A stretch of DNA of 64,000 nucleotides from an uncultured Candidatus Saccharibacteria bacterium (GCA_964434285.1 CAYSUJ010000003.1:20992-84991), one strand, 5' to 3'. Counted from the stretch's first letter, positions 17,327 to 53,697 are shown. Program-made: numbers and translations. Notes: generated by a model not told the origin, from the sequence alone.

Positions 17327-17674
17327 CTACTCGGCCTTGCCGCCACGAGCCCAACTCTTGATTCGACCGGCCAACTCGTCTCCTCCTTCAGGATGATCAG
17401 CAACGAAATTCTCAGGCAGAACATGCGATTCATCGTCGATGACGATTCCAAAGGTCTGGTTGACGCCGTTGTAGTCAATCCCGAGAGGTGCCGCACCCTC
17501 TCCGTCGTCACAGGCCTCAGTGAACGTCTTGAGCAGGTGCGCGAAGAGATCTTCTTTATCCATGCTGCGAGAGAAGGAATCGAACCTTCGTCCCCCCATT
17601 TCAGGAAACTCTTTCGAGAAAAGTACCCTGAGAGTGGGGTGTCCTACCGTTAGACGATCCCGCAATACCGGCAT
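17327..17674 (-). CDS. Hypothetical acidic protein (115 aa)
   Basis: Longest ORF in the region with reasonable composition. No domain recognised. Confidence 0.3.
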   Translation of the reverse strand: MPVLRDRLTVGHPTLRVLFSKEFPEMGGRRFDSFSRSMDKEDLFAHLLKTFTEACDDGEGAAPLGIDYNGVNQTFGIVIDDESHVLPENFVADHPEGGDELAGRIKSWARGGKAE

Positions 17675-22410: not shown

Positions 22411-23730
22411 ATGGAAAAGCTCATTTGGCATACCCAACAGCGGAAAGTAAACGAATTACTCCCCTTCAAGCAGAATCCTCGCAAGATGTCAGAAAGACAG
22501 ATTGCCGACCTTACCAAGTCTCTCAAGAAATACGGCCTCGTGGAGATCCCTGCTATCGATACGGATAACCGAATCCTAGCGGGTCATCAGCGACTCGCTG
22601 TCATGCAGCTCCTTGGTCGCGGCGATGAGATGATCGACTGCCGCATTCCTAACCGAAAGCTGACAGAGGAGGAATTTAAACAGTACCTCATCATTTCCAA
22701 TAAGGTGCATGGCGACTGGGATGAGGACATTCTTGCTGAGTACTTCGATATGGACCTTCTTCTTGATTCCGGATTCGATACCGAAGAATTGAGTGATGTT
22801 TTCTCAGAAGCCCTCGAAACAGAAGATGACAAATTCGATATCGAAAAAGAGTTAAAGAAGATTGAAGGGCCGAAGTCCAATTCTGGAGAACTGTATCAGC
22901 TTGGTCAGCATCGCCTTTACTGCGGAGACTCAACCAATCCCGAATCAGTCCTGAAAGTGGTCGGGGACGCGAAGATCGACATGGTGTATTGCGATCCTGT
23001 GTACAACATTAATCTTAGCTACAAGACAGGGATCGGCGGCACAAAAAACTATGGCGGGTCTGCCAAAGATGTTCGCTCCCCCGAGGAATACGAAACATTC
23101 TTGCACAAGACTATTGAGAACGCACTCGCTGTAGCCAAGCAAGATGTGCATGTCTTCTACTACTGCGATCAGACGTATGTCCCACTCATCGCTAAGCTCT
23201 ATGCCACGTTGGGCATCCGATTCATGCGCACCTGTATCTGGCTCAAGGGAGTGGCCAATCCAGTGCCGCAGGTCGCCTTCTCAAAGGTATATGAGCCCTG
23301 CGTATACGGCGTGCGCGGAAAGCCCTACCTCTCCCCTCACCACACCAACTATGACGAGGTGCTGAACAAGGAGATAGGGACTGGTGGTCAGATGATCGAG
23401 AATTTCCTCGACATGATCGATGTCTGGGCAGTGCAACGGCTCTCAGGCAGCGAGTATGAACACCCTACCGAGAAGCCGGTGACCCTCCATGACAAGCCGA
23501 TACGCCGCTGCACGAAGATCGGAGACAACATCCTTTCTCTCTTCGGCGGAAGCGGTGGTGAGCTGTTAGCAGCCCATCAACTCAACCGGAAGTGCTTTAT
23601 GGTCGAAATGGACCCTGTCTTCGTGGATCTCATTATCAGGCGCTACGAGGCATTTACCGGTGAGAAAGCGAAGCGTATCAGTGTACGAAATACGGACCGG
23701 AAATCGTTGAAAAGATTTGTCAGGAGTTGA
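22411..23730 (+). CDS. ParB-like nuclease N-terminal domain fused to a beta-class N6-adenine/N4-cytosine DNA methyltransferase
   Basis: N-terminal ParB/Srx fold (PAIDTDNRILAGHQRLAV). MTase motif IV DPVY (VYCDPVYNI) precedes motif I FGGSGGE near the C-terminus, which is the N6_N4_Mtase arrangement. No cognate restriction endonuclease gene is nearby. Confidence 0.75.
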   Translation: MEKLIWHTQQRKVNELLPFKQNPRKMSERQIADLTKSLKKYGLVEIPAIDTDNRILAGHQRLAVMQLLGRGDEMIDCRIPNRKLTEEEFKQYLIISNKVHGDWDEDILAEYFDMDLLLDSGFDTEELSDVFSEALETEDDKFDIEKELKKIEGPKSNSGELYQLGQHRLYCGDSTNPESVLKVVGDAKIDMVYCDPVYNINLSYKTGIGGTKNYGGSAKDVRSPEEYETFLHKTIENALAVAKQDVHVFYYCDQTYVPLIAKLYATLGIRFMRTCIWLKGVANPVPQVAFSKVYEPCVYGVRGKPYLSPHHTNYDEVLNKEIGTGGQMIENFLDMIDVWAVQRLSGSEYEHPTEKPVTLHDKPIRRCTKIGDNILSLFGGSGGELLAAHQLNRKCFMVEMDPVFVDLIIRRYEAFTGEKAKRISVRNTDRKSLKRFVRS

Positions 23731-24272
23731 ACAAGAATCCGAATATTAGCTACGTCTGCCGGAAAGTCGGTATCGACAAGAGCACATTCTACCGATGGCA
23801 GTCCAAATACGATACGTTCTTTCGCCGCATCTTGAGCGCGGAGATGTGGGGTCGGGAAAACATCAACGACGTGGCGGAAAGCGTCATCCTAAAAGCGGTT
23901 CACGCGGGTGATATGAAAGGTTCACAATACTGGCTCAGCCATAATCATCCGCGATACGTCGCTCTTGAACGAATCCCGTACCTCGCAAGCCTTAATAAAA
24001 GCCTGATTGAAGAGTTAAGTGCTCCGATCTCCAAAACATCCAAGTTCGAGCCGCTCTTCGAGTATTATTTCATCTGCGAAGAAGTGCAGAGGGATAAAGA
24101 AGCACGAAAGATGGTGGAGCCGCTCGTTAAGGTTGCCTGCGACGGCGACGAGGAACTTTACGAACTATTTTTTGCCTCGTATGCTGAGTGGAAAGCAGAA
24201 AAGATACGGATAATTAAGGAATATATCGATGCGGGGATTAGGCCGCCTCGCCCCAAACGTCGTAGAAGGTAA
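23727..24272 (+). CDS. Hypothetical protein (181 aa)
   Basis: Translationally coupled (ATGA overlap) to the methyltransferase gene. The N-terminal segment has a possible HTH. No confident family. Confidence 0.4.
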   Translation: MNKNPNISYVCRKVGIDKSTFYRWQSKYDTFFRRILSAEMWGRENINDVAESVILKAVHAGDMKGSQYWLSHNHPRYVALERIPYLASLNKSLIEELSAPISKTSKFEPLFEYYFICEEVQRDKEARKMVEPLVKVACDGDEELYELFFASYAEWKAEKIRIIKEYIDAGIRPPRPKRRRR

Positions 24273-24284
24273 TCAAGAAACTCC

Positions 24285-24743
24285 TTAGTTTTGGAACGAG
24301 GTCAGAATACCATTCTCGAAGTAGAGGTAGTTCGAGTAACCGTATACCCATTGCTCACGCTTTCCGCGGGAGGTGACGGTGGTATTTATGTCGTCCGGCT
24401 TTCCCCACGAGGCTAGTGCCTGTGCCTGATCCATGCCCAGTTTAACTTTCTTCTCTGCGATTATCTCGCAGGTTTCCTTATCCCAGCCGGGATGAGCTGT
24501 ACAGATTTGTCCTGCCTTGGATGCTTCCCATTCTTTTTGTTCTTCAGCCAATCTGGCCTGCTTTCGTTCTTCTAGTCTCTTCTCCGCTGCGACCATTTCA
24601 GGCGTTAGCTCGGCGCGGTATTGAGCTTCTGTATTGGTGCTCACTGTATCCTCCGCGAGAGAACCGGCTACACCAAGACCTATGAACGTTAAGAGTGCGA
24701 GAACGATGATGGTAGAGGTTTTCCATCCTATCGGTTTGCTCAT
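24285..24743 (-). CDS. Hypothetical secreted/anchored protein (152 aa)
   Basis: N-terminal signal/anchor (TSTIIVLALLTFIGLGVAGSLA) followed by a coiled-coil-like region. Confidence 0.4.
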   Translation of the reverse strand: MSKPIGWKTSTIIVLALLTFIGLGVAGSLAEDTVSTNTEAQYRAELTPEMVAAEKRLEERKQARLAEEQKEWEASKAGQICTAHPGWDKETCEIIAEKKVKLGMDQAQALASWGKPDDINTTVTSRGKREQWVYGYSNYLYFENGILTSFQN

Positions 24744-25128
24744 ACGATTTTCTCCTTATTGGATAAATCGATGGCGGCTTTGAGACACACAAAGCCCGCC
24801 ACCAGGAGGGCCGAAGCCCCTACTAGGGTTTCCCCTAATAACGCGATGAACGCCCTGAATGACGGGTTGTCTATGTTCATCGCGATTCCTACGACCATGC
24901 CACCGTTGCCGATAGTTTAGGTCGTCGCCCTCTCGGGCCAATATTGGGTATGTAAAGAGCATAATAGCCCCGACTCGGCTATTGGCCAAGACCCTAGCAG
25001 ACCCCAGGTGTTTGCGAATAGGCTTCCACTACCACACGACGATTCAATGGCTTTGCGAAGTTAAACCACCCACCCGATGATTGGGGTAAGTATGATGGTC
25101 TTACAAATGGCTTTTTTCACAAACAGTC

Positions 25129-25731
25129 CTACTTACGCGCGTCAATTATCGTCCGCACGTACTCTTTTAGCTGTTCCTGAGAAACTTCTGGCCATTTTTT
25201 GAGCTTGTTTTCCGTAAGAGAGTTCACGCAAATGACCAAAGACGGCACATCAGGATTCGGCGTCTCGAAAATCATGGTTGCAGTATTCGGTTTGAGTGCA
25301 ATTGCGTCGTGGAATACTCCCGCTTTCATTTTGTATGCTGATCCGACTGAATGGGTTATATCTTCACGCGTTGTAAGTGAGCATCTCATTCTTGTCATCT
25401 CAAGCGTAGAACTGTCTCCATGATTTTTCACTTCCCAGATTTTATAGTCCCCGTCCGGATCCAACGTCACATCATAGCGGCGTTCAAAGCCCTCTCCACA
25501 TAGGATATGGCTGGTGAAGTCAAAAGAGTGGTTGTGAATTCTGTCGGGCGCACCAAGTTCATCGACATTCATTGCCTCGGGCCAAAAGCGCAAACGAATT
25601 TTTCGAGGCCCTCCCTGGTCAACCTTTGCATGGATGAATCCGAGAGGGTGCATGTGCCCCTCGATTGACAACTTACTCTCGTAAATATCAGAGAGAATCT
25701 GATCTAATTCACTGTCAGATAGATATTCCAT
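25129..25731 (-). CDS. Hypothetical cupin-like protein
   Basis: IHNHSFDFTSHILCGEG resembles a cupin metal-binding His cluster. It is the last gene of the co-directional operon. Confidence 0.35.
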   Translation of the reverse strand: MEYLSDSELDQILSDIYESKLSIEGHMHPLGFIHAKVDQGGPRKIRLRFWPEAMNVDELGAPDRIHNHSFDFTSHILCGEGFERRYDVTLDPDGDYKIWEVKNHGDSSTLEMTRMRCSLTTREDITHSVGSAYKMKAGVFHDAIALKPNTATMIFETPNPDVPSLVICVNSLTENKLKKWPEVSQEQLKEYVRTIIDARK

Positions 25732-25803
25732 AAAACATCGCTACGCTAATTGGCGGGATAATACAACTCTCATGCTAAATTTCCAAATTCGTTATCCAGT
25801 ACT

Positions 25804-26451
25804 TTATTTCACTTCCCCGAGATGTGCGTGGTCATTCCAACCGAGCACATACCATCCTGAATCGTGAAGTCCAAACGACAAATCATATTGAATAAGCGTA
25901 ATGCCAGTATTGTGAGGAACGAACGTCCGTCTTATGTGATCGTATGCTTCTGGGGTTATTTTGTCTCCAAAAATAACCAACGCGAGCACCATTTTCAGGA
26001 ATTCTCCGTGGGTTACCACTAGAATATTCTGCTCCTTTCGTCCCGAGAGAAAGGCCATTGCCTCTTCGGCTCTCTGTTTGAGTTGGAAGTAATCTTCTTC
26101 ATCGGAATGCCGCTTGTGTGGGTCTGCAAACGTATCTTTAACAATACGCATAATAGACTTAACCTCGGCATCTTCCCTGTTTCTGCCACGCACTACCGAC
26201 GGACGCTTAATTTCCTCAAACAAAGGATTTTCGGTAACTGTATGCCCAGTACGTTCGGCGATAATGCGTGCAGTTTGTGCGGCGCGCGTCATTGAACTTG
26301 CAAATACCACGTCAACCGGGATACTTTCGAAACGCTTGGCCATGAATTGAGCCTGTTTGACACCTTTTTCAGATAATTCGACTACTGGGAGCTGGTATTC
26401 ACCGGCCTCATTGCCGTTCGTGGAGCCATGGCGAACAAAATAGATATTCAT
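25804..26451 (-). CDS. Histidine phosphatase (phosphoglycerate-mutase-like) family protein
   Basis: N-terminal catalytic IYFVRHGSTNGN (RHG motif), with a TH/GE pattern in the C-terminal half. Confidence 0.7.
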   Translation of the reverse strand: MNIYFVRHGSTNGNEAGEYQLPVVELSEKGVKQAQFMAKRFESIPVDVVFASSMTRAAQTARIIAERTGHTVTENPLFEEIKRPSVVRGRNREDAEVKSIMRIVKDTFADPHKRHSDEEDYFQLKQRAEEAMAFLSGRKEQNILVVTHGEFLKMVLALVIFGDKITPEAYDHIRRTFVPHNTGITLIQYDLSFGLHDSGWYVLGWNDHAHLGEVK

Positions 26452-26461
26452 AGCGGTAATT

Positions 26462-27214
26462 TTAAGCTATATCCGGCAAATTGCCGACCTTTTTTATAAC
26501 AGTTTCTAAACTCGCGAGGAGCGATTCTTCCGAGGGATCAATCGTAAGATCGGGCTTCGATGGTACTTCATACGGCATATCCTCGCCGATTTTGCCACCT
26601 TTGATATAAATCCAAAATGGGTTAATGAGTTCTGTGATTTTATCCCGCGTCGATTGAAAAGGAGCTATAACTGATACAACGACGTTGAATCCTTGGGCAT
26701 TCAGCATTTTCGCCAACCGAGCGACGCGCATATTATGTTCGTCGCGATCTTCTTTGCTGAACCCTAGATCAGTTGAGATCGATGCTCGCAACTCGTCTCC
26801 ATCGAGTACTACAGCATTCATCCTTTCCTTCAAGAGGTATGCAATCGAAGTTTTGCCAGCCCCAACATTACCAGTGAGCCAAATGATTCCCTTTTTGCTG
26901 TTTCTGATTTTCGTTGCCGAGATTTCTTCAACCTGTTTCTCCAGACGGATGCGTCTGATACCCCATCCAACATCACGCCCATAGCACACCTCTTTGATAT
27001 CTGGTATTGCGATGATCTCGACGTTCTCGTTATCCTCGTACACTTTTCTTATTCGTGCCATTCGTTCTTCGACCGTGTACGGATTACCCTCCGAAAAAGG
27101 AGTATCCCTCACTGCAATGACAACTTTCCCGCCCTCGTCGAGTACGACCTGTATGAGGGCTTTATGTCCGTCGTGAAATGGTTGCCACCTGCCGATGAAT
27201 AGTGATTTGCTCAT
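26462..27214 (-). CDS. Bifunctional TagD-like HxGH cytidylyltransferase / APS-kinase-like P-loop kinase fusion
   Basis: The N-terminal domain has FIGRWQPFHDGH (HxGH) and ISATKIR (ISxTxIR), the nucleotidyltransferase signature of the glycerol-3-P cytidylyltransferase/NMNAT family. The C-terminal domain has GNVGAGKTS (P-loop) and LDGDxLR...DLGFSKEDRDEHNMR, the adenylylsulfate-kinase family signature. Start trimmed to MSKSLFIG (ATG at 27214) to remove the overlap with the MAT gene. Confidence 0.65.
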   Translation of the reverse strand: MSKSLFIGRWQPFHDGHKALIQVVLDEGGKVVIAVRDTPFSEGNPYTVEERMARIRKVYEDNENVEIIAIPDIKEVCYGRDVGWGIRRIRLEKQVEEISATKIRNSKKGIIWLTGNVGAGKTSIAYLLKERMNAVVLDGDELRASISTDLGFSKEDRDEHNMRVARLAKMLNAQGFNVVVSVIAPFQSTRDKITELINPFWIYIKGGKIGEDMPYEVPSKPDLTIDPSEESLLASLETVIKKVGNLPDIA

Positions 27215-27218
27215 AGAT

Positions 27219-28454
27219 TTACGCCAAATCGTATTTGCCCAATAGTATCTGGTCGGTTGTTCCTGATACATTGCTCACAATCTTAGATACGATGTCGTTT
27301 GTAAGCTGCGGATCTAGCGGCTTACTCGAATTTACAATCACAGACCACGGAGTATCTATCGGCTTATCGGACTGGCTAACTATAAAGACTTCACACGGTA
27401 TTCCCATTTCTTTCCATATCTGCTGGGCGATGTCCCATGCCATTGCTGAATACAGTTTTCCTGCATGATACTGCGGATTCTTTCCGCTTAAGCCCTCGAT
27501 ACTAAAGGGTCTTCGAGACGAAATAACGCCGCCTAAGCGATTTCCACGCGCCACCTGTCCTTCGTCGCCGGATTCAATACAAGACCCCGTGTACAGAAGA
27601 TAGAAAAGATCGTCCCGCTGACCATCTGCCGTATTCAGGGTGAAGTTGATATTAAGGGGTTCGTATTTGTCGCAAATCTTGCGAATGAACGATCTTATTT
27701 CTTCTAGGTTCACTTTATATTCTTTCGGCGAAGCAACTTCGGTCGATATCTGTGGCACACAAAGCGTCAAATCAACATCCTGTCCCCGCCTGACGGCCAT
27801 AATTTTTATGTCATAACCAAGCCATGAATAGGTTTTCCTGGTCTCATCAGCATTCAATGTCTGCTCAACTTCAAGCACTAATCGCTCAAGAGGCGTGTAA
27901 GGTGCCCAACCACAACCAACAGCGGTGTCGTTCGCGACAGGGCGCGTATATTCGGGTAAATCGGTCAACTTGCCAGGACGAAAGCGTGAGTATGCGGAAG
28001 AACGAGCGGTATTACTGTCCGCCGGTTGTAGCCCTCGGGTTGTATTTGAGGTAATTTCGACCATCAGCCGACAGTTGGTAAGAAAGTCAAAATTTCTTAA
28101 TTCCCTTTCCAAAAAGTCAGATGCGGCACCCACAAGCGCGTCGCGATAGAGTATCTTTTCCTCCCCAACTTGAGGCGTAACTCGCCCATTGATAAGTAAC
28201 CGCACTGGGGATACGAAATTACCGCCACCAAAGCGGACATCGCATTTCCCGCCCATCAACGAGAGCTTGTCGAACTGATGTCTCAAAATTGTTCCAAACT
28301 TATCCCTACAAATCTGGGCATAGGTACGAGACAAGAGTTCCGCCAGCCGATCCGCCAGAGTGTCAGGGTGTCCACGCCCTTTGCGTTCAACAATCTCAAA
28401 ATCAGACATCGAGAGATCCTCTAAATTGGTTACGAGATTCAGGTTAAGGGACAT
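27219..28454 (-). CDS. Archaeal-type methionine adenosyltransferase (SAM synthetase, PF01941 family)
   Basis: Alignable throughout to M. jannaschii MAT: [18 protein letters not shown] vs [50 protein letters not shown] vs [57 protein letters not shown] vs [41 protein letters not shown]...[20 protein letters not shown] vs GDDGSVGRGNRVNGLI...MSMEAASGKNPVNHVGKIYN. Confidence 0.85.
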   Translation of the reverse strand: [411 protein letters not shown]

Positions 28455-28466
28455 AGAAATTTGTTA

Positions 28467-28976
28467 TTAGCTAAATACATCCTTTGCAATGAGTTTTTGC
28501 CATTTCTCCTCATTCCAGTCACGCCAGCCCTGTATAACCTCATCTTTGAGCACATCCGGCACGATTTCAGGCGGACTTCCGAACGAGTTAGGAAATGTAT
28601 CATTGATGTGTTGATCCTGTAAAACAGGCCACTTTGTGAAGCCGCCCATGACGGGAGAACGTAGGCCAAATACAACCCTTTTGATACGTAACTCCTGAGT
28701 GGCAAAGGCACACATGGGGCAAGGCTCAACCGAGGAATAGAGAGTCGATTCCGCCAGCTCATCCGGAGTAAGAGCCTTTTGTGCATCCAAAAGGGCTAGC
28801 ATTTCTGCATGACGGTATACCTCGCTCTTATCAAGAGCTTCGTTGTGTCGCTCGCTAATGACTTTGCCCTTAAAAACCACCAGGGCACCAAAGGGGAAAT
28901 CCTTACTTCGAGAACCGAGGGCGGCAACTCGGATACATTGGCGCATATACATGGCATCGTCGTTCCTGTCCTGCAT
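28467..28976 (-). CDS. CMP/dCMP-type (cytidine deaminase fold) zinc deaminase
   Basis: The HAEMLAL (H-A-E) and PCPMCA (PCxxC) zinc-binding motifs of the CDA superfamily. The size and architecture resemble TadA/guanine-deaminase-like nucleoside/base deaminases. Confidence 0.7.
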   Translation of the reverse strand: MQDRNDDAMYMRQCIRVAALGSRSKDFPFGALVVFKGKVISERHNEALDKSEVYRHAEMLALLDAQKALTPDELAESTLYSSVEPCPMCAFATQELRIKRVVFGLRSPVMGGFTKWPVLQDQHINDTFPNSFGSPPEIVPDVLKDEVIQGWRDWNEEKWQKLIAKDVFS

Positions 28977-28996
28977 AGCCCCCTTTTAGCAGAAGT

Positions 28997-30049
28997 TCAG
29001 CCTTTTATCAAAGTCCGCCTTAGCTTTCCCCTTTCAGATTCAACAAATTTCTCTGCATATGCATGATTTTCTTCACTAATCTGCCTGCGTTTTTTCTCGC
29101 TGTCAGGCTCGAAGCTTCGGTTTTTTTGCGGATCTTTTGAGTATGTCTTTGTACGCTCCAACATTCCTTGGACTTCAGGGTTGGTCAGAGATAAGTTCCA
29201 CGCTGAATCGAGTATTGCGGGAAGTTCACTGGTAATCTGCAAGTAGTCCACAAAAAGCGCGTTCTGGTCATCATGTGCGAGTGCCTTTTTACAAAAAGTA
29301 CCGAGGAGACGGCATGCATACTCGCCATCGGTCAGAGATTCGGTTTCCGATTCACTCAGCCCAAGTATCGGAGCAAAGAACGACACATGAGTATGGCGGC
29401 TACGCATCCAGCCCGGTGGATCCCGCAAGACGGATTCGAGTACTTCTGCTCCATTACGATGAGTGAACATCCATCGAACACTTGGATACAAACTCAATAT
29501 CTCATCAATGAATAGAATATTCCAACTACGAAACTTTACGAATACACGCTCGCAGTGATCGGGCTTGCAGGCATAAATCGCACTGAGAGCCGCCTTAAGG
29601 AGTTGTTGCTTCGTTAAACCGCCAGGCAATTTCAGCGCAGGGTTCAATATCGCAAGTGCAATAGTTGGTTCTGACACAACATAAAATCGATCCACCGTTG
29701 CCAGCATCTGCATTGCAAGTGTGGATCCACAACGAGACATGTGGAAAATAAAGTGTGTCCCTTGTTCGTTAATATTCCTATCTTGAAAGTCGCGCGCAAA
29801 CACGTCAACTGGGACAAGTTCAATTCGCGGATCGTTCATATCGTAATGTAGCGGACGAACCAATACATTTTGCTCCTCTCCGATGAGCTTATTTACATCC
29901 GCCACACGAAACTGACCAGCAAGAGAATCGAGAAAGAACGGGTCTGTCAGGTTGATCTTCGGTACTTTTGCAAGAACAACATGACATTCCCCATTGGCGA
30001 TGTGTAAATCGATAGGGAGTGATACGGTCTTGTTTGACTTTTCGTCCAT
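28997..30049 (-). CDS. Sulfotransferase family protein (PAPS-dependent)
   Basis: FIFHMSRCGSTLAMQML matches the 5'-PSB loop of Sulfotransfer_3-type enzymes. A downstream 3'-PB-like region is present. It is co-operonic with the APS-kinase-like domain. Confidence 0.55.
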   Translation of the reverse strand: MDEKSNKTVSLPIDLHIANGECHVVLAKVPKINLTDPFFLDSLAGQFRVADVNKLIGEEQNVLVRPLHYDMNDPRIELVPVDVFARDFQDRNINEQGTHFIFHMSRCGSTLAMQMLATVDRFYVVSEPTIALAILNPALKLPGGLTKQQLLKAALSAIYACKPDHCERVFVKFRSWNILFIDEILSLYPSVRWMFTHRNGAEVLESVLRDPPGWMRSRHTHVSFFAPILGLSESETESLTDGEYACRLLGTFCKKALAHDDQNALFVDYLQITSELPAILDSAWNLSLTNPEVQGMLERTKTYSKDPQKNRSFEPDSEKKRRQISEENHAYAEKFVESERGKLRRTLIKG

Positions 30050-30055
30050 ATAGCA

Positions 30056-31078
30056 TCACGTTTGGTGCCCCAAAAGTTGTTTGAGGATATGGTCTGATAT
30101 ATTCGGCAAGGTAATGCGGTCGGAGATTCCGAGCGCCGCGGCAACACCATTGATCGCACGTACGAAGTTTATGCTTCGTATCAAATCCCCGCGTTGACGC
30201 TTGTCGAATACGCCACGCGGTTGGCGCACAAGATATTCTTGTGCCTCTTTGTAGATTGGCTGAGTAGGCACCGGCATCGCATCAATGAGTTTGTAACTCC
30301 ACGAACCATTTTCCTTAAAGAAAATCACATTATCCTCCCCAGCAAGCGCGAGAATCTGCCCCTCATTCTTGGCGTACGATATTGCCTTTTGAACGAAATC
30401 TATAAGGGCATCTTTGAGACCAGAATCAGTGTGCGCACGCTCAGTAAGGTGCGTGAGGAACCTCCCAGACGAAAGGTCTTGGAATTCCAAAAACTCCTTC
30501 TCGTCCACCTGCCGCCCCTCAAGTAAGTCATGCGTCATTTTGAGATAAACCGCTTCGTCTTGCGAAGAGTTTTCAGGATAATTACCGAAAGAAAAAGCCA
30601 GACGTCCTGGATATTCGGCTTCTTCACTAAACTTTTGGACAGCGACGTGCGTCCATACACTTCGGACTTTTCGTGCCTCTTCGGGCAACTTTCTACCAAT
30701 GTAATCGTCGCGGAATAATTCCTCCAATATCTCGGCCGAGATGGGAACCTGCATCAAATAACGCCTTTCTTGCAAAGCATGATCCGATCCGAAATGCCTC
30801 CAAAGATTTCGCGCTTCTGCGTTTTTGCGCCACACATCCCCGGCCGAATACACTTCGGCGTACGCCCGCATACTGTCTTCATCCGTAATACCCTTTGTGT
30901 AGCATTCATACAAAATGTCTTTGATTTTTCTCCAAGAGGCCTTAACGACCAATTCGGGATGCTTAGGAACGCGATACACTAAGTGATCTCCACCTCGCTT
31001 ATAGAACTCGGGCTTGAAGCGCGAAATAATATCGGCATCCTCCGGCAATTTATCAAATACTCCCTTGTCCAAATTCAT
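30056..31078 (-). CDS. Hypothetical protein, possible atypical kinase-like fold
   Basis: No clear motifs except a Gly-rich GGDHLVYRV near the N-terminus and scattered conserved Asp. The kinase assignment is speculative. Confidence 0.35.
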   Translation of the reverse strand: MNLDKGVFDKLPEDADIISRFKPEFYKRGGDHLVYRVPKHPELVVKASWRKIKDILYECYTKGITDEDSMRAYAEVYSAGDVWRKNAEARNLWRHFGSDHALQERRYLMQVPISAEILEELFRDDYIGRKLPEEARKVRSVWTHVAVQKFSEEAEYPGRLAFSFGNYPENSSQDEAVYLKMTHDLLEGRQVDEKEFLEFQDLSSGRFLTHLTERAHTDSGLKDALIDFVQKAISYAKNEGQILALAGEDNVIFFKENGSWSYKLIDAMPVPTQPIYKEAQEYLVRQPRGVFDKRQRGDLIRSINFVRAINGVAAALGISDRITLPNISDHILKQLLGHQT

Positions 31079-32067
31079 ACTTTTTGAAAGTAACTTTTAA
31101 CGACTTTATCTCCGGCGTGCAAAAGCTCTTCTCGGGAAACGATGTCCAAAACCGTAAATTTATCGTCACGCGGACGAACCCGTCCAAGTACAGAAACTAT
31201 TTGATCGGCCGTTGTATTTTCCTGAATGTACTCGTGCATATCCACGTCTTTTTTAAGATACTCAACAATAGTATCAGTTATTGCATTCCCGTATCCCGCC
31301 TGCACCTGCAGTTGCTGTGTTACGAGAATCCCAAATAACAAGCCCATGCCATGCGGACACGCCTTTTCGCTCTCAATGTAGGAAGAAATGATGTGTTCTG
31401 ACCCACTAACCAATCTTCCGCTTCCCTGCAGTCTTGTAAGACTACCGGATTCAAGCAAACAATCGAGTAATTCCTTGAGTGCTTCTCGGGTGAACGGCTG
31501 GGAGAGTAAATCCAGAGATCTTTGAGCCAGCTTTTGTGCGCGACCACGCAAGGCAGAATCAAATACCTCACGGTGACGCTCGACAGCAATATCACAGTCT
31601 ACTTGAGCCGTGGCAGTTGCCGCCACCTCAACGATACCGAATTTATTTAGAATGTACGCCTGTTCCAACAAGTCAAAGTCAACAACGATTTCACTGGCAA
31701 CAACAGAATTGGAACTGAGCTTGCCGTGTTCAGAATCGAAAAAACTATTCCGGTGAGTTGCAAAAGAATTTGTAGACAGCGCGGACGGAATAAAACAAAA
31801 CGTACTATTCGTTTTGTGGCAGATATATTTAACAACATCAACAACTGTTCCAGCACCTATGGCGACTATCCGTGCATTTTTCTGCTTAAAATCACGAAGA
31901 AAAGTATCAAGGTCATGACGGTCGGCCCTCGCAACTTCTAAAACATTAAAGCGGGTTTTAGCTAGATGCTTTGTGTAATCGTTGACGATATAGAGATCGA
32001 AGTCCTGTTGCGAGAGATAATCTGCCACCCCACGAAAGGTCACTTTTGGGTCTGGTAGGGATAGCAT
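31075..32067 (-). CDS. DHQ-synthase-like / Fe-ADH superfamily enzyme (sugar-phosphate cyclase or glycerol-1-phosphate dehydrogenase-like)
   Basis: RIVAIGAGTVVDVVKYI is the Gly-rich NAD-binding turn. The domain order and the SGSEHIISSYIE metal-site-like region are typical of the DHQS/G1PDH/glycerol dehydrogenase superfamily. Start trimmed to MLSLPDP (ATG at 32067). Confidence 0.55.
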   Translation of the reverse strand: MLSLPDPKVTFRGVADYLSQQDFDLYIVNDYTKHLAKTRFNVLEVARADRHDLDTFLRDFKQKNARIVAIGAGTVVDVVKYICHKTNSTFCFIPSALSTNSFATHRNSFFDSEHGKLSSNSVVASEIVVDFDLLEQAYILNKFGIVEVAATATAQVDCDIAVERHREVFDSALRGRAQKLAQRSLDLLSQPFTREALKELLDCLLESGSLTRLQGSGRLVSGSEHIISSYIESEKACPHGMGLLFGILVTQQLQVQAGYGNAITDTIVEYLKKDVDMHEYIQENTTADQIVSVLGRVRPRDDKFTVLDIVSREELLHAGDKVVKSYFQKV

Positions 32068-32210
32068 ATTGTCTCCTATTTTCCGCTGTCTTCGGTGGCA
32101 TACTAACAAAAATGATGAGGAAATAAAGGCTTTTAGGCTACTAAGTTACCAACACCTAAGGTTTCCGAGGCGTCCTTGACTCCCTAAGGGGTCAGCGTCA
32201 TTCATGGGAT

Positions 32211-33536
32211 ATGGAAACTACAACAAGAGCCACAGGGATTATCGGCAAGCAGGTCGTCCAAGAAGCGGTCAAAGTAAGGTACTGCTTGTATGCGAGAAAG
32301 AGCACCGAGTCGGAGGAGCGGCAAGTGCTCTCGATAGATTCGCAAATCAAAGAGATGCTTCAACTGGCGGAGCGAGAAGGCCTTGAGATCGTTGCCATGA
32401 AGCGTGAATCGCACTCCGCAAAAGAGACGGGTCAGCGGCCAGTCTTCAATGAGATTGTTAATGAAATAAAGGCTGGCAAATACAACGGCATTCTCACATG
32501 GGCGCCGGATCGTATCAGCAGAAATGCGGGCGATCTTGGTAAGGTTGTGGACTTGATGGATTCCGGTGGTTTACAGGAAATTCGGACATACAGTCAAAGT
32601 TTTCGGAATAATCCGAACGAAAAGTTTCTGCTGATGATTCTCGGGTCGCAGGCGAAGCTCGAAAATGATAACCGAGGCATGAACGTGAAGCGCGGTCTGC
32701 GAACGCGCGTTGAAATGGGTCTATGGCCGACAACTCCGCCGACCGGATATTTGACACAGAAAATGATGGACAAGAAATGTCAGGTCGTTATCGATCCTGA
32801 GCGTGCGCCCATCGTCAAAAAGATGTTCGAGAAAGTGGCGTACGAAAAGTGGTCGGGTCGGCGTGTGTACCACTGGCTCCGATTCGAGCTGAACTTCCAT
32901 ACGACGGGCAACAAGCCGCTCGCCTGCGGCAACGTGTACCGTACGTTGACTAACCATTTCTATTACGGTGTCTTCGAGTTCCCGAAGAAGAGCGGAAACT
33001 GGTACAACGGCAAGCACGAGCCGATCATCAGCAAGGAATTGTTCGACGAAGTGCAGAAACAGTTGAAGCGTGACAGCATTGTGCGTCAAAGTCGTGAATT
33101 CGCGTTCACGAAGCTCATAACGTGCGGCCTGTGCGGATCAACCTTCAGCGCGGAGGAGAAGTACAAACAGCTCAAAGACGGCACGGTCGCAAAGTATATC
33201 TACTACGGCTGTGGTCGTGCCAAGGATTTACACTGCAAGAATACGTACCTACGCGAGGAAGAGTTGATCGAGCAGATCATAAAAGCATTTGATCAGGTAG
33301 ATTTTAACGAACTAGGGATTCAGCATAAGTTCGAGGAAGAGCTGCGCCGATTCAACAAGTTCCAACGCGGTGTACTTGGCTTCTCTGGCTCAAAAACGAC
33401 ACACGAGGAGGTAGATTTACGTACTTACGCGAAATACACCTTGAAGGAAGGTACAGGTGCCGAAAAGCGCGAGTTAATGGGATGCTTCAAATCGAGGATC
33501 AAGATTACTAAAGGAATAGTGACTATCGAGCAATAG
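32211..33536 (+). CDS. Large serine recombinase (resolvase/invertase N-terminal catalytic domain plus recombinase domain plus zinc ribbon)
   Basis: YCLYARKSTESEERQVLSIDSQ carries the catalytic Ser in an RxS(T) context. Resolvase fold, then a Recombinase domain and a C-terminal Cys cluster CGLCGSTF...YYGCGRAKDLHCKN. Confidence 0.85.
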   Translation: METTTRATGIIGKQVVQEAVKVRYCLYARKSTESEERQVLSIDSQIKEMLQLAEREGLEIVAMKRESHSAKETGQRPVFNEIVNEIKAGKYNGILTWAPDRISRNAGDLGKVVDLMDSGGLQEIRTYSQSFRNNPNEKFLLMILGSQAKLENDNRGMNVKRGLRTRVEMGLWPTTPPTGYLTQKMMDKKCQVVIDPERAPIVKKMFEKVAYEKWSGRRVYHWLRFELNFHTTGNKPLACGNVYRTLTNHFYYGVFEFPKKSGNWYNGKHEPIISKELFDEVQKQLKRDSIVRQSREFAFTKLITCGLCGSTFSAEEKYKQLKDGTVAKYIYYGCGRAKDLHCKNTYLREEELIEQIIKAFDQVDFNELGIQHKFEEELRRFNKFQRGVLGFSGSKTTHEEVDLRTYAKYTLKEGTGAEKRELMGCFKSRIKITKGIVTIEQ

Positions 33537-33555: not shown

Positions 33556-36500
33556 TCACCCCTCTTCCTGTAGTGGCAGATCTGAAACAAAAAGTTTAAT
33601 TGCTGCCGCTTTGTTCTTGAATACAAATTGTACTTTCTCGTAGATGTTTATGAGCACTCTACGACGCAGATATCCCTCCTTGTCTGCATACTCCCTCAAC
33701 CAAGCTGGATCTTGAGAGATGAGCTTGGCTCGGGCGGCATCGTCTTTATTCAGATCAGTAACTTTCAATTCAAATATTTCCTCCCTGTGAGTCTTATCCT
33801 GTGTGTCATTGGTTGGTGCGTACTGTACTAGCTCGCCCAGCTCCTTGAGCGAGGTAACCACGAGAAAGTTTTTGACATCTGCGTCATTAGTAAATACGCG
33901 GAAAATCGGTACGTATTTTTCTCCTATTTTGAAATAACCATCGCACCAGCGGTCCTCGTCAAACGAGGACTTTGGACGATTTCGATGATCCCATCGAGGA
34001 ATAAACGCCTCCGACCTTCGTATCCCTCCGTCATACTCGAACATGTGGTCGAGCGACTCGATGACGATGAGATTTTCGTCATCCAACGTCAAAATTGCTC
34101 TTTCAACTGCGGGGACGATATCATTCTTTGGAATAGTCTCTTTGGTTTCTAGGCCCTCAAGGATGTCACGGAAAATAATCTGACTCTCCGAGCTTGCCAT
34201 GCCATTGCCATAATTTTCGCCCCATCCGGCGTAGTGGACATGCCAATTTTTTATAAATGCGGCCTTCTCATCCAACTGGTTGTAGCCATACGCTTTAACC
34301 TCTGCATTAGCGGTGTCAGTGCGATCAACATACGTACCCGCTCTCGTGATGATGCTTCGGATTACGCTTCCATCATGAAAAGCATCGAGAAAAGATTTTT
34401 TGAATTCAGCCAGCTTCTCGGGGTCTATGTCCGTCCGTTTGACACGCTCCTCCTCGTCTTTTTCCTGTGCGTCTTTTGCTTTGGTCAGTAATGTTTTTAG
34501 TATGCCTGTCTTGGAAAGTGCAACTGTATCCAAAATAAATTCCCAATTTGTTGGCGAAGTTTCGATATCGGTAAGTAGTTTCCACAAAGCGCCATCGCGC
34601 TGCTCTGCAAGGAACGCCAAATCACGATTGTGAGGCAGCTCAATCGTATCCACATTGTCTGATGTGACCCCTCTTAAGAGAGTGAGGGCATTCACTGCGT
34701 AGAGCCGGTCGAGCTTACTATTGAAATCTATAGTATGAACTTCACCGTCCGGTATGAGTTCCCAATTATCCCAATTCCAAAATCGCTCAACATCGAAATC
34801 TCGAGCCGAAGAATAAAGAGTGGTGAGCTCTTTTATTTCATGCGGCAGATAATTTTTAATATCATTGTAATAAGCTCTAAGCTCCGTATCGTTCTGATGG
34901 AGGCGCACCATCTCAAAAATCCAAGTCGCCATGCCAAACACTAACTGCTGCTTGCGGCGCTGAATTTTCTCGGTGGCGTCCTGTCGAGCCTTCTGCAGAT
35001 CTAGCTTTTCTTGCAATATCTTTTTCTCCTCATCAGTCCGCGCAGACTCAAGGTCGTATTCGCTATAACGCGAGAATTCTTGGTCGCGTATCAAGTGACG
35101 GTAGAGAGTATTTAATTGGGACAAAAATTCTTTAAAACTATCCCTATCGCGCTTGTCGAAGGCGGTTTTGATGAGGTCCTGAAAAGTCTGGAAAACGGGT
35201 ATCGAGAAGTCAGCATACTCCGTCAATTTCTTTGCGTCGCCAATCTTGCGAGTCAACTGATTTTCTATGTAGTAGTCAGTAATTTCCTTCAGATGCCTCC
35301 ACGACCTGTCGATCATGAACTCTCGTAATGAAGGTGCGAGGCCTTCTGTTGTAGTTGCGAGCCAATACACTCGTGACGGAAACCGCACAAACACTTGATA
35401 CAGGTACTGATCCCCATACTTGATAGCGCGGGTAGCAATGGCCATCGGCAGATAAATGACGGTCGAGATAATTTCTCGATCGCGACTTTCTACAGCCTTC
35501 TCGACAATGTCTTGGATACTGTCTTCAAGCCACCCTATATTGAGCTGGCCACCAAAAAGATTCCCGCGTTCCTGCTTGGCCTGATCGTAACTGAAACCGC
35601 CGCCACAACGCGTGATCATCTCAAGGAAGGACTCGGAAAGACTTAGGTACGTTTTTCTGAGATCATCGATCTTGCCGAGCTTTTTCTCTACGATAGCGGT
35701 AATGAATTGATCCTTGAGTCCCGCCAACTCCAGATTGACCTCCTCTGAAAAATTATCCTCTTTGCCAATGATGAAAGCCTCTTGTGCCAGTTTTTGCAAT
35801 TTCTTAAGCACACCTTTGTCGGTGACACTGCGTTTCTCCACGGCGAGCAATATCATGTTGCCCGATTCGTCCCTATCTTTGAATTCAACGCGATCGGCAT
35901 ACTTTTTGACGAGGAATTGCCGGACCGTAGTGTAATTTCTGGTCGCCGACGAGGATGGAGTTGAGGCTGGGTCACCCGCTGAGAGCGTTGGCGGGCGCGG
36001 CTTGTCTTTATAAAAACTGAAGCCATTTTTATTCGCCTCACTCTCAGCGAGCTTGGCAAACTCGTCCAGTTTGTCGAGTCGTATATCCTTGACGACACCC
36101 GCTGTATCCGCAGAAAACGCATGGTGAGTCTCTTCCTCGTCACTCATCAAAAACGGATTATACGTAAGCTCGATTTTGTTCTCGCCCAACCTCTGTATAA
36201 GAAGATTGTCGGCGTAGCGTTCATTCATTCCCAAGTCGATGCTTTGCTCAATACGATCTTTGAGGAGACGCATCCGCTTTTCATAAAACAGTACCTTGCT
36301 GAGCAAGATGTTCACGAGTCGCCATAGAGAAATTATTGTAAAAATTCCCACCAAAAAAACCAGCACTGCACTCCATGCATTTACATCGAACCAAATGAAA
36401 TTCAGAAATACGAGGATTTCTCCTACAGTGAGCGGAAATAGCATGCTCTCGCGTAAGTACACCCGTGCGCGATCTTTCGTCTCGTCGTCTCTAACGCTTT

Positions 36501-36972
36501 CGGCGACAAAAATAATCAGTGCAAAAATTATCGCTCCCACACCGGCTAAGACGGCAATGAGATTCTGGTAATGATTGCTTTCTTTGAAATCAAGAGCGCC
36601 GAGCGACAGCCCGAAATGAGGCCACCACGAGTCCGGAGTGTGAGAAAGGCCGGAGAGTACAAGTATTGGTACAAGCACAGTAATCAAAGACTTCCACGAT
36701 GGGGTGTAGATTTGTTCAATCCAGCGCGTGAAAAAAGATTTGGGCGAGGTCTTACACGAGCGCTCTATTTCTTGCCTGACCAGGACGGATAGGAGATTTG
36801 TATTACTGCCTCTCTGCGTGTGCCAAAATGACCAGACGGCAAGAGCGGCTACTGTAAGCGCCAAGACAAGCCAAAGATGGTTAGGACTGCTTAGGAAAAC
36901 GCAAAAGCTGGCGGCGGCCGCAATAATCAAGAAGGGCGTGAGCCAGATTTTGTTACAGAAATAACATTTCAT
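33556..36972 (-). CDS. Large hypothetical membrane-anchored protein (1138 aa)
   Basis: The N-terminal ~230 aa have 5-6 TM helices. They are followed by ~900 aa of soluble, partly coiled-coil sequence with no recognisable Walker, nuclease or other catalytic motif. Confidence 0.6.
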   Translation of the reverse strand: MKCYFCNKIWLTPFLIIAAAASFCVFLSSPNHLWLVLALTVAALAVWSFWHTQRGSNTNLLSVLVRQEIERSCKTSPKSFFTRWIEQIYTPSWKSLITVLVPILVLSGLSHTPDSWWPHFGLSLGALDFKESNHYQNLIAVLAGVGAIIFALIIFVAESVRDDETKDRARVYLRESMLFPLTVGEILVFLNFIWFDVNAWSAVLVFLVGIFTIISLWRLVNILLSKVLFYEKRMRLLKDRIEQSIDLGMNERYADNLLIQRLGENKIELTYNPFLMSDEEETHHAFSADTAGVVKDIRLDKLDEFAKLAESEANKNGFSFYKDKPRPPTLSAGDPASTPSSSATRNYTTVRQFLVKKYADRVEFKDRDESGNMILLAVEKRSVTDKGVLKKLQKLAQEAFIIGKEDNFSEEVNLELAGLKDQFITAIVEKKLGKIDDLRKTYLSLSESFLEMITRCGGGFSYDQAKQERGNLFGGQLNIGWLEDSIQDIVEKAVESRDREIISTVIYLPMAIATRAIKYGDQYLYQVFVRFPSRVYWLATTTEGLAPSLREFMIDRSWRHLKEITDYYIENQLTRKIGDAKKLTEYADFSIPVFQTFQDLIKTAFDKRDRDSFKEFLSQLNTLYRHLIRDQEFSRYSEYDLESARTDEEKKILQEKLDLQKARQDATEKIQRRKQQLVFGMATWIFEMVRLHQNDTELRAYYNDIKNYLPHEIKELTTLYSSARDFDVERFWNWDNWELIPDGEVHTIDFNSKLDRLYAVNALTLLRGVTSDNVDTIELPHNRDLAFLAEQRDGALWKLLTDIETSPTNWEFILDTVALSKTGILKTLLTKAKDAQEKDEEERVKRTDIDPEKLAEFKKSFLDAFHDGSVIRSIITRAGTYVDRTDTANAEVKAYGYNQLDEKAAFIKNWHVHYAGWGENYGNGMASSESQIIFRDILEGLETKETIPKNDIVPAVERAILTLDDENLIVIESLDHMFEYDGGIRRSEAFIPRWDHRNRPKSSFDEDRWCDGYFKIGEKYVPIFRVFTNDADVKNFLVVTSLKELGELVQYAPTNDTQDKTHREEIFELKVTDLNKDDAARAKLISQDPAWLREYADKEGYLRRRVLINIYEKVQFVFKNKAAAIKLFVSDLPLQEEG

Positions 36973-37134: not shown

Positions 37135-37221
37135 GGCGGAGGGTGAGAGATTCGAACTCTCGGTGGGTTACCCCACGCTCGCTTTCCAAGCGAGTGCACT
37201 AGACCACTATGCGAACCCTCC
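37135..37221 (-). tRNA. tRNA-Ser(GGA)
   Basis: Manual fold of the reverse complement. Acceptor GGAGGGU/ACCCUCC, U8, 3-bp D-stem with a GG-containing D-loop, anticodon stem CUCGC/GCGAG with loop UUGGAAA (anticodon GGA). Long variable arm GUGGGGUAACCCAC, T-arm GAGAG-UUCGAAU-CUCUC, discriminator G. CCA is not fully encoded (CCC). Confidence 0.85.
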
Positions 37222-53484: not shown

Positions 53485-53559
53485 CTAGTCACTATACCTG
53501 TGCATAACCCCTCGCGCCACCCTTGCGCCTTTCCCACCCCTTGCTATGCTCTTCGGTAC

Positions 53560-53665
53560 ACCCCCAATACATCAAGAGCGCGATTAGAGTTCTGGCTCAG
53601 AGTCGCCCCCAACCCCGAAACTCGGAAGGTGGGAAACCAGTCCTTCGGGAAGATGCACTATTTAG
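53560..53665 (+). promoter_or_regulatory. Structured metK leader, possibly a SAM-I-like riboswitch with SD-sequestering hairpin
   Basis: AUCAAGAG (SAM-I J1/2-like) at 53571-53578, a CCAACC/GGUG segment, and AAGAUG ~75 nt downstream that could close P1. Immediately before the start codon, UCUCCC-GUAU-GGGGGA pairs the GGGGGA Shine-Dalgarno. I could not verify the full consensus by eye. Confidence 0.35.
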
Positions 53666-53697
53666 ATGTCTCCCGTATGGGGGATAATTTTTTTATC

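Follow-up and report, generated by a model that had tools for sequence, protein, structure and literature searches.

A modular sulfotransferase-methionine adenosyltransferase cassette of Patescibacteria, found in its most complete form in an eight-gene Saccharibacteria operon

Why should a bacterium that possesses its own bacterial-type methionine adenosyltransferase (MAT) carry a second, archaeal-type MAT in an operon with a sulfotransferase and a deaminase? This question is raised by a 64,000-nucleotide stretch of DNA from an uncultured Candidatus Saccharibacteria bacterium (GCA_964434285.1 CAYSUJ010000003.1:20992-84991; hereafter, the window), in which eight tightly packed open reading frames (ORFs) follow one another on the minus strand at 25129-32067, while a bacterial-type metK is encoded at 53500-54750. 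A first-pass annotation had described an eight-gene co-directional operon on an integrative element, and the ORFs, their strand and their coordinates were all confirmed. The genes, named g1 to g8 in the direction of transcription, are as follows (PAPS, 3′-phosphoadenosine 5′-phosphosulfate; APS, adenosine 5′-phosphosulfate; CDA, cytidine deaminase; TPST, protein-tyrosine sulfotransferase).

g1, 31075-32067 (-), Fe-ADH_2/glycerol-1-phosphate-dehydrogenase-like protein, 330 aa; accessory
g2, 30056-31078 (-), protein of 340 aa, distantly protein-kinase-like in fold; accessory, mostly found together with g7
g3, 28997-30049 (-), TPST-like PAPS-type sulfotransferase with a ~95-aa N-terminal extension; core
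g4, 28467-28976 (-), CDA-fold zinc deaminase, 169 aa; accessory
g5, 27219-28454 (-), archaeal-type MAT of the "RHQFDK" clade; core
g6, 26462-27214 (-), fusion of an NMNAT-like HxGH nucleotidyltransferase with an APS kinase; accessory, PAPS supply
g7, 25804-26451 (-), histidine phosphatase, 215 aa; accessory phosphatase
g8, 25129-25731 (-), 200-aa protein with an invariant His pattern; accessory

From g1 to g8, the junctions comprise a 4-nt overlap followed by gaps of 6, 20, 12, 4, 10 and 72 nt; the spacing of 3-25 nt or overlap reported earlier thus holds at every junction except g7-g8. An alternative upstream ATG of g6 at 27271 would, if used, make this gene overlap with g5. The identical eight-gene string was found on an independent Logan contig (L001).

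The gene set is a recurrent operon of the candidate phyla radiation (CPR, or Patescibacteria) and no chance juxtaposition, since the same families occur in conserved order at dozens of independent loci. Neighbourhood searches recovered all eight families, in changing combinations, in approximately 38 non-redundant loci from CPR genomes and metagenomes, and the conservation of gene content and order in relatives is thereby established. The operon had been treated as an indivisible unit, a view that does not survive this survey: the cassette is modular, with g3 (36 of the 38 loci) and g5 (34 loci) as its fixed core, around which the other six genes come and go. The remaining frequencies are g4, 18; X166 (a 166-aa family absent from the window), 18; g7, 17; APS kinase/g1, 14; g2, 11; a UvrD-like helicase, 7; and g8, 6. 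The window operon is the most complete version of the cassette that was found.

Two surveys define the core. A search with the g3 profile of one genome per GTDB species identified 13 CPR loci (Zambryskibacteria, Paceibacterota, Saccharibacteria, Taylorbacteria and Parcubacteria), at 12 of which g5 adjoins g3 or the g3-g4 pair; the thirteenth (L018) lies on a contig that breaks off just past g4. In a search of metagenomes with the g5 profile, every g5 of at least 56% identity has g3 beside it, and canonical archaeal MATs, at 33-40% identity to g5, are without a g3 neighbour. In loci lacking g4, the g3 and g5 reading frames overlap by 4 nt, which suggests that the two are often translationally coupled. 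Proteins close to g5 and g6 (87-93% identity) were found in Zambryskibacteria, Paceibacterota and Hainich groundwater contigs, where the operons read g1-g3-g4-g5-g6-g7, that is, the window order minus g2 and g8; across the recovered CPR loci, which are labelled as several candidate phyla, g5 is 55-90% identical. Recent horizontal transfer was considered as the source of the approximately 90% protein identity of g5 and g6 and was rejected, because the DNA identity is only ~72%, indicating constraint rather than recency. Accessory functions are linked to one another or to the core by fusions of X166 with g3 (P0249), of APS kinase with g1 (L102) and of the nucleotidyltransferase with APS kinase (g6). 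The cassette is common in Patescibacteria, and distant versions occur in contigs of higher G+C content (52-63% GC), where g3-like and g5-like genes are followed, in this order, by an HprK-related P-loop protein, a g8-like protein, a TPR protein and APS kinase.

The MAT of this core is not simply an archaeal enzyme in a bacterial host. The first-pass annotation had recognized a second, archaeal-type MAT in addition to the housekeeping metK, and g5 indeed matches AdoMet_Synthase (PF01941; 302 bits, E 7e-90) over its full length. It aligns with the archaeal enzymes TkMAT (4L4Q), PfMAT (6S81), MjMAT (7P82) and SsMAT (4HPV) at E values of ~1e-60 to 1e-71, with ~43% identity to PfMAT over the aligned region, as counted from the alignment; nevertheless, it falls below all of the NCBIfam MAT equivalog cut-offs (NF003362-66), its best score being 312.8 bits against 481. 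A set of 90 non-redundant archaeal-type MATs anchored on g5, comprising 39 sulfotransferase-linked sequences and 51 others, was searched for discriminating positions, defined as those conserved in at least 90% of the linked and at least 80% of the other sequences and differing between the groups. Exactly two such positions exist, namely position 58 (Arg in 100% of the linked, His in 98% of the other sequences) and position 60 (Gln in 100%, Asn in 100%). By alignment to 4L4Q, Arg58 and Gln60 correspond to His62 and Asn64 of TkMAT, which hold the carboxylate of methionine in archaeal MATs (PMC3853416). Elsewhere the active site is shared with the archaeal enzymes: H29 (the catalytic His33 of TkMAT), D215 and D297 (Asp201 and Asp283, contacting ribose) and Y285 (the adenine-stacking Tyr271) are conserved in at least 95% of the 90 sequences, the triphosphate-binding motifs are common to all 90, and the ANDT motif is kept in g5. 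Besides its Arg/Gln carboxylate ligands and sub-equivalog score, g5 differs from the archaeal MATs in a gating loop that is ~14 residues longer, in the sulfotransferase that always stands alongside, and in its hosts, which are bacteria that also have bacterial MetK.

The RHQFDK signature tracks the sulfotransferase closely, as g3 lies nearby at 37 of 40 signature-positive loci and at 0 of 49 signature-negative ones. Of the three exceptions, one begins at the end of its contig. At the exception L120 (729-2066), two ORFs precede the signature-positive gene: one of 445 aa that looks reverse-transcriptase-like by eye in its first residues and may encode a group II intron protein, and one of 227 aa with an HAD-like motif at its N-terminus. 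This cassette may be disrupted. On the alignment evidence, the RHQFDK MAT represents a separate clade with an obligate sulfotransferase partner and an altered carboxylate site, and its earlier interpretation as just a dedicated supply of S-adenosylmethionine (SAM) does not account for these features. The Arg58/Gln60 pair shows constrained divergence in the substrate pocket, which does not by itself demonstrate a new substrate.

A sulfotransferase fold was found for g3. Its score against PF13469 (21.7 bits) is below the gathering threshold of 27, and many of its relatives at 40-68% identity carry this domain. The 5′-phosphosulfate loop "SRCGST" (residues 105-110) and the 3′-phosphate motif R-x7-S (R198...S206) are invariant in 49 relatives, and g3 also keeps an invariant Glu and an invariant Lys at positions that we take to be equivalent to the catalytic residues of TPST. 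Human TPST1 and TPST2 (5WRI, 3AP3) share only 14% identity with g3, which is cytoplasmic and bacterial and has an extra N-terminal domain of ~95 residues; its acceptor is not necessarily a protein. Distant members of the g3 family (L029-L095, e.g., L082 16076-16597) occur in Acidobacteriota, Verrucomicrobiota, Myxococcota and other groups, often in pairs, with a sulfate adenylyltransferase/APS kinase neighbour in six loci.

How the sulfuryl donor would be provided is indicated by g6, in which a compact NMNAT-like HxGH nucleotidyltransferase of approximately residues 1-105 (CTP_transf_like, PF01467; 39 bits) is joined to an APS kinase (APS_kinase, PF01583; 91 bits). The N-terminal half is PF01467/NMNAT-like and not an ATP sulfurylase (PF01747). 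The kinase half retains the APS-binding residues: its P-loop, LDGD and GF/DR/HN motifs, which provide the Arg, Phe and Asn contacts to APS, align with those of the solved enzymes 8a8h and 5cb6. Its lid is ~25 residues shorter than that of 8a8h, and its TIGR00455 score is 94.7 bits against an equivalog cut-off of 138.7. The same architecture, an HxGH nucleotidyltransferase followed by a P-loop adenosine-3′-OH kinase, is found in the bifunctional PAPS synthase and coenzyme A (CoA) synthase (PPAT-DPCK), from which g6 differs in that its transferase of ~105 residues is NMNAT-like (PF01467) rather than PF01747 or PPAT and in that its kinase half is without most of the lid. A CoA-synthase-like role was rejected because the kinase half is clearly of the APS-kinase type. 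Across the loci, APS kinase takes three forms: fused to the NMNAT-like transferase, alone, or joined, as a canonical enzyme of full length, to g1 (L102) or to PUA_2/ATP-sulfurylase (L101). The L101 fusion (PUA_2/ATP-sulfurylase/APS-kinase, PF01747-PF01583) lies directly upstream of g1-g7-g2-g3-g4-g5, in the place equivalent to that of g6. Since APS kinase recurs and the transferase half is optional, the recurrent function is the supply of PAPS. The activation of a scaffold by NMP or CDP transfer, formerly ascribed to g6, relied on a transferase half that has proved dispensable, with APS kinase recurring alone, with g1 or with ATP sulfurylase.

The presence of ATP sulfurylase, APS kinase and MAT, all enzymes of primary metabolism, might suggest that the cassette is simply housekeeping sulfur and SAM metabolism, with the genes for sulfate activation and SAM synthesis clustered for co-regulation. 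We regard this as very improbable. Profile searches placed every gene below equivalog cut-offs, and none is a housekeeping orthologue (rounded bit scores against cut-offs: glycerol-1-phosphate dehydrogenase [G1PDH] 59 and 413, TadA 70 and 150, MAT 313 and 481, APS kinase 95 and 139); the window already encodes a bacterial metK; assimilatory sulfate reduction does not call for a sulfotransferase; and the recurrent gene families of the 38 loci include no PAPS or APS reductase. The distribution is moreover patchy and island-like, with cassettes in variable, non-syntenic positions of otherwise similar genomes.

What the accessory proteins contribute can be approached through their residues and contexts. 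The g1 protein matches Fe-ADH_2 (PF13685; 50 bits) and scores 59 bits against the G1PDH model NF002022, whose cut-off is 413. It keeps the GxGxxxD NAD motif ("GAGTVVD", aligned with "GGGKAID" of 3ce9) and both His ligands, and the metal-ligand Asp (S-N/V-D-G) is replaced by Asn in 13 of 13 members ("STNSF" as against "SNDGF", "SVDGF" and "SNDGI"). This replacement, together with the fusion to APS kinase, argues against a plain glycerol-1-phosphate dehydrogenase. The cyclitol or polyol scaffold suggested in the first-pass annotation finds no support for the same reasons, the missing Asp being the metal-binding residue of G1PDH and GldA. Synthesis of glycerol-1-phosphate and CDP-glycerol by g1 and the transferase half of g6 was also rejected, because g1 is without this Asp and because most g1-bearing loci lack the transferase half.

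The g4 deaminase (dCMP_cyt_deam_1, PF00383; 72 bits) has the zinc motifs "RHAEM" and "EPCPMC", and its nearest solved structures are TadA, deoxycytidine deaminase and guanosine deaminase, the latter two scoring nearly as well as TadA. A role as housekeeping TadA was rejected because g4 scores 69.8 bits against the TadA cut-off of 150 and is absent from half of the cassettes. At the 18 loci where it occurs, it always lies between g3 and g5, a position which hints that a pathway intermediate carries a nucleobase.

The g7 protein is a histidine phosphatase (His_Phos_1, PF00300; 106 bits) that falls below every NCBIfam equivalog cut-off, and nearly every complete locus has g7 and/or X166. The g2 family comprises 31 close relatives among 5.8 billion proteins, all named ones being from a CPR lineage or an unclassified bacterium; a BFVD search gave weak kinase-fold matches only. 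Its contexts are g1-g7-g2, g7-g2-g3-g5, and g7-g2 alone. X166 and g2 replace one another in the slot between g7 and g3 of operons that are alike in other respects (L101-103 as compared with L099/100). X166 is, alongside g4, the commonest accessory, is often duplicated, and contains the motifs "LGxDxGNVII" and "DDRLEVL"; it had no match in Pfam, NCBIfam or the PDB. From motif spacing only, it may be read as a minimal HAD-type phosphatase. Examples are as follows.

L013, 5565-6059: X166
L021, 3182-3700 and 4661-5161: X166, two copies
P0249, residues 1-165: X166 fused to g3

The assignments of domains in the first-pass annotation stood for seven of the eight proteins; the exception is g8, the supposed cupin, which had no match in Pfam, NCBIfam or the PDB, and for whose six homologues Pfam returned no cupin match. 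A search of the 5.8-billion-protein index with g8 returned only g8 itself. Homologues of 28-51% identity occur in five other cassettes, three of which (L020, L115 and L117) also have g2 and g7. The residues H28, H34, H66-N-H68 (His66-x-His68) and H141 are invariant in six homologues, a pattern that would fit a metal site and that does not prove a cupin. A methionine-salvage module made up of the kinase, the phosphatase and a cupin (MtnK/MtnC/ARD) was considered and is not favoured, as too many steps are missing and no family matches.

Taken together, a small-molecule pathway in which PAPS-dependent sulfation is coupled to a specialised adenosyl transfer, yielding a sulfated SAM-like or nucleoside compound, is the reading that we tentatively favour, with slightly less than even confidence. 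In the first step, g6 would make PAPS; the APS-kinase step is suggested by homology, and the NMNAT-like half might, more speculatively, yield APS or a different adenylylated donor. Relatives encode a canonical ATP sulfurylase-APS kinase in its stead. In the second step, g3, whose PAPS-binding residues are conserved, would sulfate a hydroxyl or amine group on a small acceptor, with PAPS as the donor. In the third, g5 would use ATP to adenosylate a thioether to a SAM-type sulfonium; its catalytic residues are conserved, and because of the Arg58/Gln60 signature the substrate would be methionine or, more probably, an analogue with an altered carboxylate end. In the fourth, g7, or the unrelated X166 in relatives, would remove a phosphate, most simply the 3′-phosphate of 3′-phosphoadenosine 5′-phosphate (PAP), the by-product of sulfation. 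Finally, the g4 deaminase, the kinase fold of g2, the NAD-type dehydrogenase fold of g1, and g8 would tailor the acceptor or the product. The end product would most likely be a sulfated adenosyl-sulfonium (SAM-like) or sulfated nucleoside metabolite acting as an antimetabolite, cofactor or signal. The more specific proposal that the RHQFDK MAT has been neofunctionalised and, with its TPST-like partner, makes a previously unknown sulfated SAM analogue (cofactor, donor or antimetabolite), in a pathway that is widespread in the CPR and has been carried on mobile elements into other phyla, is rather doubtful in our estimate. Bolder still is the variant in which the sulfotransferase-fold protein would use a 3′-phosphorylated adenosyl donor other than PAPS.

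Several observations weigh against the small-molecule pathway. There is no direct sign that g3 and g5 act on the same molecule. We know of no precedent for a PAP phosphatase role in the g7 family. The minimal cassettes (X166-g3-g5) encode no PAPS synthesis, and the g7-g2 pair is also found without g3 and g5. The L108 cassette holds a SET-domain gene (PF00856; 64 bits) and a methyltransferase-like gene, a combination that fits ordinary SAM as the product; the latter gene had no Pfam match, and its cluster-mate in L021 scores below the Methyltransf_24 cut-off. Bacterial MATs bind the same carboxylate with Gln and Lys (PMC3853416), so that Arg58/Gln60 could still bind methionine and the signature may mark the clade only. 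Finally, the closest folds to g3 are protein-tyrosine sulfotransferases, and distant relatives of g3 lie beside Phage Tail Collar proteins (PF07484) at 39 of 65 loci, which together point towards protein acceptors.

These last two observations also speak for the decoration of a macromolecule, in which g3 would be a protein (tyrosine) or cell-surface sulfotransferase that sulfates a surface protein, pilin or glycan, perhaps also methylated, and the rest of the cassette would only supply and recycle PAPS and SAM in a CPR cell short of cofactors. In the 38 loci, however, the core is accompanied by no conserved protein or precursor peptide that could be the substrate, and such a role leaves unexplained both a separate MAT clade with a changed substrate site despite a normal metK and a deaminase between g3 and g5 in 18 loci; we consider it unlikely.

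Cassettes that combine PAPS supply with a sulfotransferase are well known, examples being the rhizobial NodPQ-NodH and the Xanthomonas RaxPQ-RaxST/RaxX systems. In both, ATP sulfurylase and/or APS kinase stands beside a PAPS-dependent sulfotransferase, as here, and g3 presumably shares with RaxST-type enzymes the Sulfotransfer_3/TPST-like fold and PAPS motifs. To our knowledge, neither system includes an adenosyltransferase partner, a CDA deaminase, or a G1PDH-like or kinase-fold protein, and the present cassette differs from them in having no precursor-peptide or glycan genes.

The closest parallels to the setting of g5 are on plasmids. Archaeal-type MAT homologues were found in the thuringiensin cluster of the Bacillus thuringiensis plasmid pCT127 (L180 12004-13245; PF01941, 255 bits), on a Streptomyces plasmid and on the Candidatus Megaera plasmid pPCS148, in each case within a specialised-metabolite cluster. 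By analogy, these clusters show that the archaeal MAT fold can be recruited for specialised metabolism. Unlike g5, these MATs retain the canonical HHN motif, and no g3 lies near them; their partners are glycosyltransferases, Gfo/Idh/MocA oxidoreductases, TIM-barrel isomerases and a nonribosomal peptide synthetase. A His phosphatase, a NUDIX protein and a 3′(2′),5′-bisphosphate nucleotidase are additionally encoded in the Megaera cluster. Downstream of the MAT homologue of pCT127 comes a P-loop protein with weak similarity to the HprK-related one found after g5-like genes in high-GC cassettes. Thuringiensin is an adenine-nucleoside analogue, and its MAT homologue may join C5′ of adenosine to glucose, a step that a review assigns to "Thu1" (PMC4147579). 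Literature searches on the gene combination, on archaeal-type MATs in Patescibacteria and on sulfotransferase/MAT genes in defence returned nothing relevant. The initial impression that no known system has this composition is consistent with these searches and with those of defence systems and annotated pathways; no description of the operon was found.

The genomic setting of the window operon raises a further alternative. The features bordering the operon are as follows.

25067-25092 (read 25092-25067), minus strand: terminator-like hairpin of 9 pairs, 36 nt past the g8 stop, identified by consensus match only
32068-32210, 143 nt: divergent intergenic region between g1 and the serine recombinase, identified by position
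32211-33536, plus strand: serine recombinase with Resolvase, Recombinase and Zn_ribbon_recom domains, divergent from g1

The hairpin is the top-listed terminator-like site of the region and is likely to mark the 3′ end of the operon transcript. The 143-nt region is presumed to hold the promoter; a scan for sigma-70-like sites in it found none. The GC content is 0.42-0.49 over 18-37 kb, as against 0.50-0.54 in the flanks, and the low-GC block extends from approximately 17.6 to 37.1 kb between a tRNA-like gene and a tRNA-Ser gene and contains the recombinase and an orphan-type DNA methylase. No att-type direct repeats were found between the two tRNA-flanked edges, so that the boundaries of an island are not shown.

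This context would fit a defence or counter-defence module, in which a modified nucleotide or SAM analogue would poison phage replication or methyltransferases, or SAM would be kept available in the face of a phage that destroys it, and which may act together with an adjacent UvrD-like helicase. Further points in the same direction are that the neighbours of cassettes elsewhere include tRNA genes, a Type ISP restriction enzyme, a Schlafen-like gene and toxin-antitoxin genes, that seven non-redundant loci have a UvrD-like helicase of ~600 aa directly adjoining the cassette, on one side or the other and in varying orientation (L102 8671-10473 (-), also L013, L096, L101, L103, L115 and L117), and that one distant high-GC cassette contig has large neighbouring ORFs resembling conjugation genes by unaided reading of their first residues only. 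Yet neither the window nor the majority of loci has the helicase, the core has no nuclease, sensor or effector domain, and some cassette copies lie among housekeeping genes. PADLOC-DB 2.0 gave no system-level match for the eight proteins and the flanking proteins of no assigned family; its partial matches were weak (dCTPase on g4, 1e-5; VakA on g6, 1e-3), with nothing for the other six or the flanking proteins. Scans of IMG/VR with the g5 and g2 profiles recovered no relatives. A defence function is judged quite unlikely; the anti-phage or nucleic-acid-modification role that the first-pass annotation allowed for gains no support from these observations, which do not speak decisively against it either.

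Other features of the block and of related loci were recorded. The left edge is a 100-nt tRNA match at 17565-17664 (-) (Rfam, 49 bits; no ARAGORN call) with an insert of ~29 nt after the anticodon region, which may represent an intron-containing or disrupted tRNA; the right edge is tRNA-Ser(GGA) at 37135-37221. The DNA methylase (N6_N4_Mtase; 22411-23730 (+)) matches the PADLOC Type II MTase model over its full length (199 bits), has no evident restriction partner among the flanking ORFs scanned, and is followed, with a 4-nt overlap, by an HTH/transposase-like gene at 23727-24272. The serine recombinase falls in a 63-sequence cluster (at least 90% identity) from Kaiserbacteria, Minisyncoccota and other Patescibacteria, including one fragment labelled Obscuribacterales, which suggests a widely shared mobile element. 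Directly after it in the low-GC block, a 1138-aa protein with a hydrophobic N-terminus is encoded at 33556-36972 (-), for which no Pfam or PADLOC match was found. At L097, PIF1-like helicase genes lie on both sides of the cassette. A LOOT RNA (Rfam RF03000) occurs both in the window (24807-24923 (-); 61.5 bits), between the terminator-like hairpin and a 152-aa gene at 24285-24743, and in L005 (841-963 (+); 70.7 bits), where, 8 kb upstream of a g7-g2-g3-g5 cassette, it opens a block resembling a mobile element (DnaB_C, DUF5681, HEPN). LOOT may thus be an RNA of CPR mobile elements; a role as riboswitch of the operon was rejected, because in the window it comes after the terminator-like hairpin and precedes a gene outside the operon.

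The anatomy given in the first-pass annotation is right save for the cupin and one spacer, and the interpretation is re-centred on the sulfotransferase-MAT pair and its PAPS supply. For the g2 and X166 families, which have no annotation in the libraries searched, the cassette provides a definite genomic setting, and the occurrence of archaeal-type MAT homologues in several plasmid-borne bacterial clusters, including that of thuringiensin, is a further outcome of the survey. A sulfotransferase locked to a MAT paralogue, the latter having its only constrained changes in the substrate pocket, provides a clean and testable case of neofunctionalisation, and could yield an adenosyltransferase/sulfotransferase pair for making SAM analogues. 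Strong purifying selection maintains this cassette in many CPR bacteria, despite their tiny genomes and limited biosynthesis. A previously unknown metabolite, either SAM-derived or a sulfated nucleoside, may lie behind it, and such a compound could matter in the dealings of these episymbionts with their hosts, phages and mobile elements.

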